Source: Bdellovibrionota bacterium (GTDB taxonomy: Bacteria > Bdellovibrionota_C > UBA2361 > OMII01). From it: a DNA stretch of 64,000 nucleotides. Shown piece after piece: positions 19,592 through 20,455 of this stretch; positions within the stretch are counted from its first letter, which is position 1, and every line of letters starts with the position of its first letter. The notes under the pieces were generated by a model, which was given only the letters and a program-made list of their open reading frames with translations, searched no databases and had not been told where the DNA came from. Where the stretch lies: the NCBI GenBank assembly GCA_044360075.1, contig JBIKLA010000011.1:26668-90667 (forward strand), written 5' to 3'. Made by a program: the position numbers and the translations under genes.

Positions 19592-20188
19592 ATGAGTGAC
19601 GCCCTGGAGATCCCCAACGCGGAAAATCTGCGCACCCTTAAGGAGCAGGGGATTATTTTCAGCAGCCCGCTGGCGATCCGCCTCACAACCGTTGCCGTGC
19701 TTCTTTTGACGGGTGTCGCCCTGGCTCGCAACCCGGTTGGTCCCCTCGTCCCACCTGACCTGGCAACGGCACAGGAGCTCGGGCTGCACGCCCTGAAGGC
19801 AGCGGCGGCAGCTTCTACGGCGTGCGCTGGCACGATCCTGCTCCTGTCGCTCATTTTTAATGGCTTCTTCCTCTCGGCGGGACTCCTTTCTCCTCGAAAA
19901 AGGGGGCCGGATAAAATAAACCCACTAGTGCGCCTAGGGCAGGGAGCATTGGGGGCTGCGCTCGGGCTCGGGGCGCTCTTGGGCTGCTCAAAATCCCTCT
20001 TTGGGGCCCTGTACCTGGGATCGCAGGAAGCAGGGGGGCAGCCTGCAGGCCTGGCTTTGCTGCGGGCTTCGTTAGGAGCCCCATTCACTGCCGTCATTGT
20101 TGGAACTGTAATTTTGGCTATACTGGTGGCTGGAATCGCTCGGGCCCGATTCGTGTTGCGGAACCGGGTTGCGAAGTCATCATCATAG
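19592..20188 (+). CDS. sctU: SctU/FlhB-family export-switch protein, N-terminal transmembrane domain only (no autocleaving C-domain)
   Basis: FlhB N-terminus (E.P..ENLRTLKEQGII.SS.L) and the conserved K(I/L)NPL loop (PRKRGPDKINPLVRLGQG) between TM2 and TM3. The ORF ends after TM4; no NPTH motif is found in any frame downstream. Confidence 0.6.
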   Translation: MSDALEIPNAENLRTLKEQGIIFSSPLAIRLTTVAVLLLTGVALARNPVGPLVPPDLATAQELGLHALKAAAAASTACAGTILLLSLIFNGFFLSAGLLSPRKRGPDKINPLVRLGQGALGAALGLGALLGCSKSLFGALYLGSQEAGGQPAGLALLRASLGAPFTAVIVGTVILAILVAGIARARFVLRNRVAKSSS

Positions 20189-20206
20189 CGGCGAATAGGG
20201 CCTTGT

Positions 20207-20455
20207 ATGTCTAAAACGATCGGCGGTCCGCCGGATCCATTTTCTCTCTCCCCGTTGCTCTCTCTGCTTCCGTCACTGGGGAAGATCAGCCGGCTTGAGG
20301 CGCTTGTCTCATCGCTCTTCGCCCGAAGCGAGAAAGTCTCCGCCCTGAGGGCTCAGGCGGAGAGCAGGGAGCAGGAGCGCAGGTTTGCGGCCGAGGAGGC
20401 CATGCTTCGCCAGATACTCGATTGGCTTGCGGTGAAGCCCGGAGGTGCCGAGTAA
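20207..20455 (+). CDS. small helical hypothetical protein (82 aa)
   Basis: Coiled-coil-like C-terminal half. Its stop overlaps the start of the TPR gene (TAATG). Candidate co-chaperone (YscE-like), inferred from position only. Confidence 0.4.
   Translation: MSKTIGGPPDPFSLSPLLSLLPSLGKISRLEALVSSLFARSEKVSALRAQAESREQERRFAAEEAMLRQILDWLAVKPGGAE

Follow-up and report, generated by a model that had tools for sequence, protein, structure and literature searches.

To our knowledge, every type III export apparatus is assumed to contain SctU/FlhB, NPTH autocleavage domain included, among its invariant core parts, and the protein is also regarded as the device that switches substrate classes. Canonical members of the family (PF01312; YscU, Spa40/SpaS, EscU, Salmonella FlhB) are ~345-385 amino acids (aa) long and carry a CN linker, the NPTH site and a C-terminal alpha/beta domain. 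Core genes can be scattered: genes for the chlamydial type III secretion system (T3SS) are split, with cdsJ-cdsL-cdsR-cdsS-cdsT at one locus and cdsU-cdsV at another. A reduced apparatus has been described in Myxococcus xanthus, whose 'needleless' T3SS* (mxan_2434-2464) is devoid of secretin, needle and translocon and holds all sorting-platform components, including the ATPase SctN (PMC12075869). A survey of the Rhc family that covers the R. etli system names RhcU with no remark on its length, and our literature search found no paper on naturally truncated FlhB/SctU or on a T3SS in Bdellovibrionota. Here we describe sctU(N), a gene within a 64,000-nucleotide stretch of a Bdellovibrionota genome (contig JBIKLA010000011.1, positions 26,668 to 90,667; hereafter, the window). 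Its ~198-aa product resembles the membrane domain of SctU/FlhB and, unlike canonical members, ends before the linker, the NPTH site and the C-terminal domain.

19592-20188, + strand: sctU(N), 198 aa, ATG start, TAG stop at 20186-20188

Taken by itself, the 198-aa protein returned no informative match to Pfam, NCBIfam or PDB sequences, and BLASTP against Salmonella FlhB aligned residues 2-47 only (E 0.005 in a single comparison). Its family is more telling. Exhaustive HMMER searching of 1.84 billion representatives yielded only ten relatives (177-202 aa). A small number of others (179-202 aa) came from two word-indexed searches that covered 5.8 billion proteins, and one relative carries the JGI name FlhB. 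When aligned by hhalign with eight canonical FlhB/SctU sequences, an 11-sequence profile of the family reached 87% probability; a 17-sequence profile, which took in syntenic orthologues from related genomes, reached 95.4% (E 1.7e-8), with a collinear match running from family positions 4-195 to FlhB 10-231. Two of the syntenic orthologues exceed the gathering cutoff of PF01312 (Bac_export_2; 24.4 bits), one at locus L025 with 58.1 bits (E 1.2e-15) and one at L098 with 29.5 bits, and both matches span only profile positions 7-195 of 335. At E <= 1, PF01312 is matched by 10 of 18 family members, and FlhB is the top match when the family profile is searched against the PDB. The L025 orthologue can be aligned with a Rhizobium SctU over 225 residues, and the alignment closes with HRMTKRE against HRMTKTE, where the canonical linker begins.

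Two family motifs have counterparts in FlhB: an N-terminal P-x-x-E-x-L-x-x-L-K-x-x-G-I-V-F-x-S-P-L and an N-G-F-x-x-S that closes helix 2. The gene also occupies the expected place, directly 3' of sctR, sctS and 'sctT', the last of these being assigned by position only. Profile and Pfam evidence from the family rules out a chance resemblance to FlhB. Judged from these comparisons of sequence, the 198-aa protein is a true homologue of the N-terminal membrane domain of SctU/FlhB, although taken singly it is too diverged for Pfam to recognize. An alignment to the FlhB/SctU N-terminus had been claimed in an earlier, model-generated reading of this DNA (the original prediction), and the family profile, the PF01312 scores of the orthologues and the position of the gene bear that claim out.

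The early end of the protein is equally well documented. sctU(N) stops 8 residues past its fourth long helix and its relatives stop 5-15 residues past helix 4; all relatives are 177-210 aa long and end within a few residues of one point. The exact 198-aa product is encoded on at least 25 contigs from independent samples, the longest of 267 kb, and several separate freshwater assemblies contribute 9 contigs with a 99%-identical variant. Because the same product recurs in independent assemblies and all homologues end alike, the TAG stop at 20186-20188 is genuine and the truncation is real and ancestral. The same observations rule out a sequencing or assembly error at the stop.

We searched for the missing half in the 64-kb window of the source genome and in ~10-20 kb around each related locus. 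A hidden Markov model (HMM) of the FlhB linker and C-domain, run at maximum sensitivity in six frames, had no match in the window, nor in any of 43 related loci (~0.65 Mb; the loci searched by tblastn plus four more), which rules out both a frameshift and a C-domain hidden in another frame. Five full-length FlhB/SctU proteins, used as tblastn queries against 626 kb of window and related loci, revealed no C-half, and the pattern NP[TES]H is absent from every frame of the window. sctU(N) thus has no CN linker, no NPTH site and no C-terminal domain. Read-through of the TAG stop was also considered, as it would join sctU(N) to the next open reading frame (ORF), h82; in the window the two share a frame and are separated by the TAG and six sense codons. 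This possibility is ruled out by loss of the frame relation at L014, L025, L098 and L104 and by the persistence of h82 where sctU is missing. The same evidence also rules out h82 as a detached SctU C-domain.

The short gene is maintained. The ratio of nonsynonymous to synonymous substitution rates (dN/dS) of sctU(N) is 0.26 at a dS of 0.37 (L014/L015) and 0.21-0.23 in deeper pairs, which shows that it is under purifying selection. Across the cluster, dN/dS is 0.10 for sctR, 0.09 for sctS, 0.04 for sctJ, 0.05 for h82, 0.24 for 'SctT' and 0.26 for sctU(N). On the truncation, the original prediction was accurate. It had stated that the protein ends after the fourth transmembrane (TM) helix, as the 8-residue tail confirms, and that no downstream frame encodes an NPTH motif, which agrees with the FlhB_C HMM and the NP[TES]H scan. 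Its doubt as to whether the stop might be a sequencing error is settled by the 25 and 9 contigs and by the constant length of relatives, and the profile and frameshift checks that bear on its claim, run on the window and 43 loci, uncovered no C-domain. Its description of the next ORF (20207-20455) as an unrelated 82-aa protein also stands; h82 is retained in genomes without sctRSTU.

The motif on which the original prediction drew, a 'conserved K(I/L)NPL loop', fared differently.

19913-19927, + strand: KINPL pentapeptide, residues 108-112 of sctU(N), in the helix 2-3 loop (from alignments)

KINPL is present in this species only. Homologues with 61% and 57% identity read RFSAI and GFSAV, respectively, the helix 2-3 loop is variable through the whole family, and no other member contains KINPL. 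Neither hhalign nor BLASTP placed the pentapeptide on the KLNPL of FlhB, and the motif of the FlhB helix 2-3 loop, KLNP-x-G-x-KR-x-FS, is not conserved in the short family. By its sequence distribution KINPL is not conserved and is a species-specific coincidence or a relic. The original prediction is therefore partly supported: right on the identity of the protein and on what it lacks, its motif evidence excepted.

Structure prediction gave a compatible outline. With an 18-sequence alignment, AlphaFold2 produced a model with a predicted local distance difference test (pLDDT) score of 64 and helices at residues 10-18, 26-46, 57-89, 111-145 and 152-190; with a 4-sequence alignment, pLDDT was 47. 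Residues 90-110, which form the helix 2-3 loop, are modelled as disordered at pLDDT < 50. With modest confidence, the predicted short N-terminal helix followed by four long helices reproduces the layout of the FlhB membrane domain.

sctU(N) is the fourth and last gene of a block, sctR-sctS-T-U, that is packed head to tail with spacers of 1-2 nucleotides (nt); its ATG lies 1 nt past the stop of the preceding 192-aa ORF. The block belongs to a larger cluster:

12017-13426, + strand: FHA1, repeated FHA domains, SctD-cytoplasmic-like (PF00498, E 1.8e-32; PF16697)
13501-14742, + strand: FHA2, with a Cys4 motif at the N-terminus, a long disordered stretch rich in Pro, and an FHA domain at the C-terminus (PF00498, PF16697)
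14757-15611, + strand: sctJ, inner-membrane ring lipoprotein (PF01514, E 2.7e-11; TIGR02544, E 1.4e-21)
15608-15832, + strand: s74, a small protein of 74 aa, kept in relatives
15813-16193, + strand: s126, a charged coiled-coil protein of 126 aa, kept in relatives
16194-17231, + strand: sctQ-like gene, two FliN/SpoA-type C-terminal domains (PF01052, E 9.6e-17)
17389-18114, + strand: DUF3313 lipoprotein, between sctQ and sctR (PF11769, E 4.3e-14)
18178-18765, + strand: sctR, 195 aa (PF00813, FliP/SctR, E 2.5e-23; NCBIfam SctR/FliP models match below their cutoffs)
18768-19010, + strand: sctS, 80 aa (PF01313, E 5.1e-9)
19012-19590, + strand: positional 'SctT', a polytopic membrane protein of 192 aa, placed by synteny between sctS and sctU
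20207-20455, + strand: h82, a soluble protein of 82 aa, the next ORF 3' of sctU(N)
20422-20889, + strand: TPR protein, T3SS-chaperone-like (TPR_19, E 3e-8)

Pfam recognizes four injectisome core parts in this cluster, namely SctJ, SctQ, SctR and SctS. The SctD-like FHA1 ends at a single C-terminal TM helix (residues 440-469) and has no periplasmic ring-building domain. Searches of Pfam and NCBIfam gave zero matches for the 74-aa protein and for the 126-aa protein, and the latter resembles SctO/FliJ or SctL in size only. The DUF3313 gene is present in most relatives. Among window ORFs of at least 150 aa, family searches across the 64 kb found no SctV (FHIPEP), SctN ATPase or secretin, and neither the secretin SctC nor the needle SctF families had a match in the window. 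The remaining window genes are housekeeping genes (Prs, L25, Pth, L9, ComEC, MreB, RNase G, BamA, LptFG, TyrRS and others), and a look-up beyond the window ends likewise showed housekeeping genes only.

The product of 19012-19590 deserves particular care. None of 13 members of its family matches Pfam (PF01311), hhalign against canonical SctT gives 0.2%, and a profile search of the PDB brought no SctT match. Family members are 178-205 aa long and share a conserved E-x-P-x-R motif; the likeness to SctT lies in position, size and polytopic character only. Either it is an SctT that has diverged to an extreme degree, or another protein has taken the place of SctT.

Downstream of sctU(N), h82 (GGPPDPFSLSPLL...MLRQILDWLA) has no family match in Pfam or NCBIfam and, at a dN/dS of 0.05, is better conserved than any other small gene in the cluster. 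In relatives the TPR gene call begins at the h82 stop, and the two are translationally coupled. The TPR protein matches two NCBIfam models below cutoff, SctY (E 2.4e-5) and LcrH/SycD (E 6e-4). We surmise that h82 is probably a substrate or partner of the TPR protein, and the two are a candidate substrate-chaperone pair.

To place the cluster in its lineage, we gathered relatives through the RNase G encoded next to it, which served as query against the representative genomes of GTDB; a scan of the genome collection with the sctU family alignment had returned zero relatives. The RNase G scan identified ~35 metagenome-assembled genomes at 70-95% identity, labelled Bdellovibrionota, Bdellovibrionales or 'delta proteobacterium' and sampled at lake and river sites (Mendota, Zurich/Řimov, Erken, Delaware Bay, WHONDRS rivers). 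They share the order RNase G, FHA1-FHA2-sctJ-s74-s126-sctQ-(DUF3313)-sctR-sctS-T-U-h82-TPR, and the sctR-sctS-T-U order is kept in >15 related genomes and metagenome contigs. The G+C fraction of the cluster (0.62) is close to that of the window (0.60). Uniform G+C content and conserved order indicate that the cluster is old and vertically inherited and not an island, and uniform G+C content together with chromosomal synteny beside RNase G rules out horizontal acquisition. As far as gene content and synteny can tell, the cluster is a native, strongly diverged and pared-down T3SS-like system of an uncultured freshwater Bdellovibrionota clade.

Some neighbouring genes travel with the cluster. Two sigma-70-like genes with region 2 and region 4 matches, at 27119-27916 (-) and 28169-29059 (+), are conserved beside it in relatives, as is a 113-aa protein at 26748-27089; all three are possible dedicated regulators. 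Directly downstream lie large conserved proteins with no Pfam match, at 22711-24153 (-), 24335-26701 (+) and 21663-22664 (+). A 480-aa downstream protein is 62-68% identical in relatives, and the acidic 788-aa and 333-aa downstream proteins could be effectors. At L098, an extra 476-aa gene (L098:7595-9025) with a weak HTTM-domain match (E 1.5e-4) is inserted between sctQ and the DUF3313 gene.

What might a membrane-only SctU do? In this clade SctU has been reduced to its membrane domain. We lean towards a reading, drawn by analogy, in which the reduced protein serves as a structural or gating subunit on SctR, SctS and 'SctT', in a gate with no autocleaving switch. By comparison with the FliPQR-FlhB structure, an architecture that Kuhlen et al. 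reportedly described in 2020, the four helices of sctU(N) would wrap or mount on the SctR/SctS/'SctT' gate, and the protein would be a purely structural or gate-closing subunit. With the NPTH domain lost, early substrates would have no FlhB_C/SctU_C site at which to dock, and a substrate-specificity switch based on SctU would be missing as well. This would fit a needle-less device for a single substrate class: the cluster has no recognizable genes for a ruler of needle length, a needle, a secretin or a translocon, and h82 with its TPR chaperone is the only evident candidate cargo. It is a more tentative suggestion that the locus specifies a minimal, undescribed T3SS-derived machine of a widespread freshwater and possibly predatory clade, one whose export gate would combine a non-canonical 'SctT' with an SctU consisting of the membrane domain, and that would have no switch, needle or secretin. 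Such a machine, if real, would be more reduced than Myxococcus T3SS* and would make the SctU C-domain dispensable for a functional type III gate.

Several observations weigh against a working, switch-less gate. A T3SS export apparatus needs SctV and SctN to function, and tblastn found neither in the 626 kb of window and related loci, so the cluster alone is not a complete exporter. By dN/dS, T and U are the least constrained genes of the cluster. In FlhB the helix 2-3 loop grips the gate, and this loop lacks conservation in the short family; confidence in the structural model is low (pLDDT 64), and searches by fold gave no informative result. Outside the 64-kb window, the genome may also encode a stand-alone FlhB_C protein or an additional SctU/FlhB of full length. 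Finally, the sctRSTU block is missing at the locus in five relatives (L018, L020, L021, L022 and L034), which retain FHA1-FHA2-sctJ-s74-s126-sctQ-h82-TPR. In three of the five, only 18-66 bp separate the sctQ stop from the h82 start, and in L021 the DUF3313 gene alone is kept. These relatives may reflect partial decay of the block or its dispensability.

The original prediction had named two options, a C-domain encoded elsewhere and an export gate that works without a switch. The alternatives differ in where they put the missing domain. If SctU is split, a stand-alone FlhB_C-like domain encoded elsewhere would dock in trans and the switch would persist. There are grounds for this: small proteins consisting only of FlhB-C exist, such as B. 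subtilis YlqH (COG2257); it is established that canonical SctU is cleaved at NPTH anyway and that its linker tolerates a separate chain; and sctV and sctN are likewise missing from the cluster, so components may be dispersed, as in Chlamydia. We nevertheless think a split protein unlikely, as ~0.65 Mb of clade sequence contains no FlhB_C signal and the tether between FlhB_C and the gate, the CN linker, is gone as well, the protein ending 8 residues past TM4. The adjacent h82 is not the missing part, given that it persists without sctU and does not keep a constant frame relative to it. The organism could instead encode elsewhere an entire T3SS, flagellar or non-flagellar, whose FlhB/SctU is full length, making the short protein a second, gate-associated paralogue. 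Many Bdellovibrionota are flagellated, and a working system would in any case require sctV and sctN at some other site. Yet wherever relatives have sctRSTU, the gene sits at the exact place of sctU after the cluster's own sctR-S-T, and its nearest sequence neighbours among 5.8 billion proteins are all short; an accessory role of this kind seems to us very improbable.

The five genomes without sctRSTU suggest a different alternative, namely that the cluster is a T3SS relic or a non-secretory FHA/SctJ/SctQ module in which sctT and sctU(N) are drifting and close to dispensable, and truncation is a step in their loss. The persistence of FHA1-FHA2-sctJ-sctQ-h82-TPR in those genomes, with the closed-up gap between sctQ and h82 in three, fits this account, as do the high dN/dS of T and U relative to the rest of the cluster, the unrecognizable 'SctT' and the failure to see sctV, sctN or sctC. 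On the other hand, a dN/dS of 0.2-0.26 still denotes clear purifying selection, and the ORFs stay intact and constant in length even between lineages that share only 20-35% identity in SctU, a divergence that a pseudogene would not outlast. The tight translational coupling persists too. We regard decay or repurposing as rather unlikely. An artefact, in which the stop is a sequencing or assembly error or the FlhB likeness arose by chance, could appeal to the want of a significant Pfam, NCBIfam or PDB match for the window protein alone, but it is hardly credible in view of the identical and 99%-identical ORFs in independent assemblies, the shared end of the homologues and the strong profile and Pfam evidence. 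A SctU pared down to a gate subunit remains the reading we favour.

A membrane-only SctU that is lineage-wide and maintained by selection would amount to a natural experiment, separating the structural or gating role of the membrane domain from the switching and docking carried out by the C-domain. The locus further points to a T3SS-like system, highly reduced and undescribed, in a freshwater Bdellovibrionota clade that is abundant and uncultured; like Myxococcus T3SS*, this system may have a bearing on contact-dependent predation.

Compared with canonical SctU/FlhB, the window protein shares P-x-x-E-x-L-x-x-L-K-x-x-G-I-V, the four long helices, N/G-G-F-x-x-S at the end of helix 2 and a place after sctR-sctS-sctT. 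The name sctU(N)-only variant suits it best, as it has the PF01312 membrane domain and the position of SctU and lacks the conserved TM2-TM3 loop and the NPTH domain. Myxococcus T3SS* is the nearest described reduced system, likewise a T3SS-like apparatus stripped of parts in a delta-proteobacterium-like predatory lineage. It has SctN, whereas the Bdellovibrionota cluster has no visible SctN or SctV and its SctU is truncated. Chlamydia provides a precedent for scattered core genes, such that sctV and sctN lying off the cluster need not be absent from the genome; however, chlamydial CdsU is full length and has NPTH, whereas here a truncated sctU lies within the sctRST locus.

Two further truncated proteins allow a closer comparison. 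On plasmid pRheCIAT894c of Rhizobium sp. CIAT894, WP_085739603.1 (L005:6001-6798) is a 265-aa 'EscU/YscU/HrcU family' protein that also has no NPTH domain; plasmids of R. phaseoli carry the same truncated 265-aa type. This protein is encoded after sctR-fliQ-fliR-like genes and keeps both the conserved loop RLNPFEGIKRLFS and the CN linker HRMTKTEARREYKDTQGDPKLKS, neither of which is found in the window protein. Its cluster contains SctN, SctL, SctV and SctJ, in contrast to the window cluster without SctN and SctV, and the 12.7-kb CIAT894 locus has no FlhB_C elsewhere. On two metagenome contigs (L106:6350-7159 and L107:6354-7163), a 269-aa PF01312 protein also stops before the NPTH site but, unlike the window protein, keeps the linker up to the strand that precedes NPTH. 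It follows FliP, Bac_export_3 and Bac_export_1, so that its SctT, unlike that of the window cluster, is recognizable by Pfam; a large GAF/PAS histidine kinase comes next, and the lineage is different from that of the window (28% SctR identity). Together with the Rhizobium and L106/L107 proteins, the window protein makes up at least three independent truncations of SctU, of which it is the most extreme, suggesting that switch-less type III gates arose repeatedly in atypical systems.

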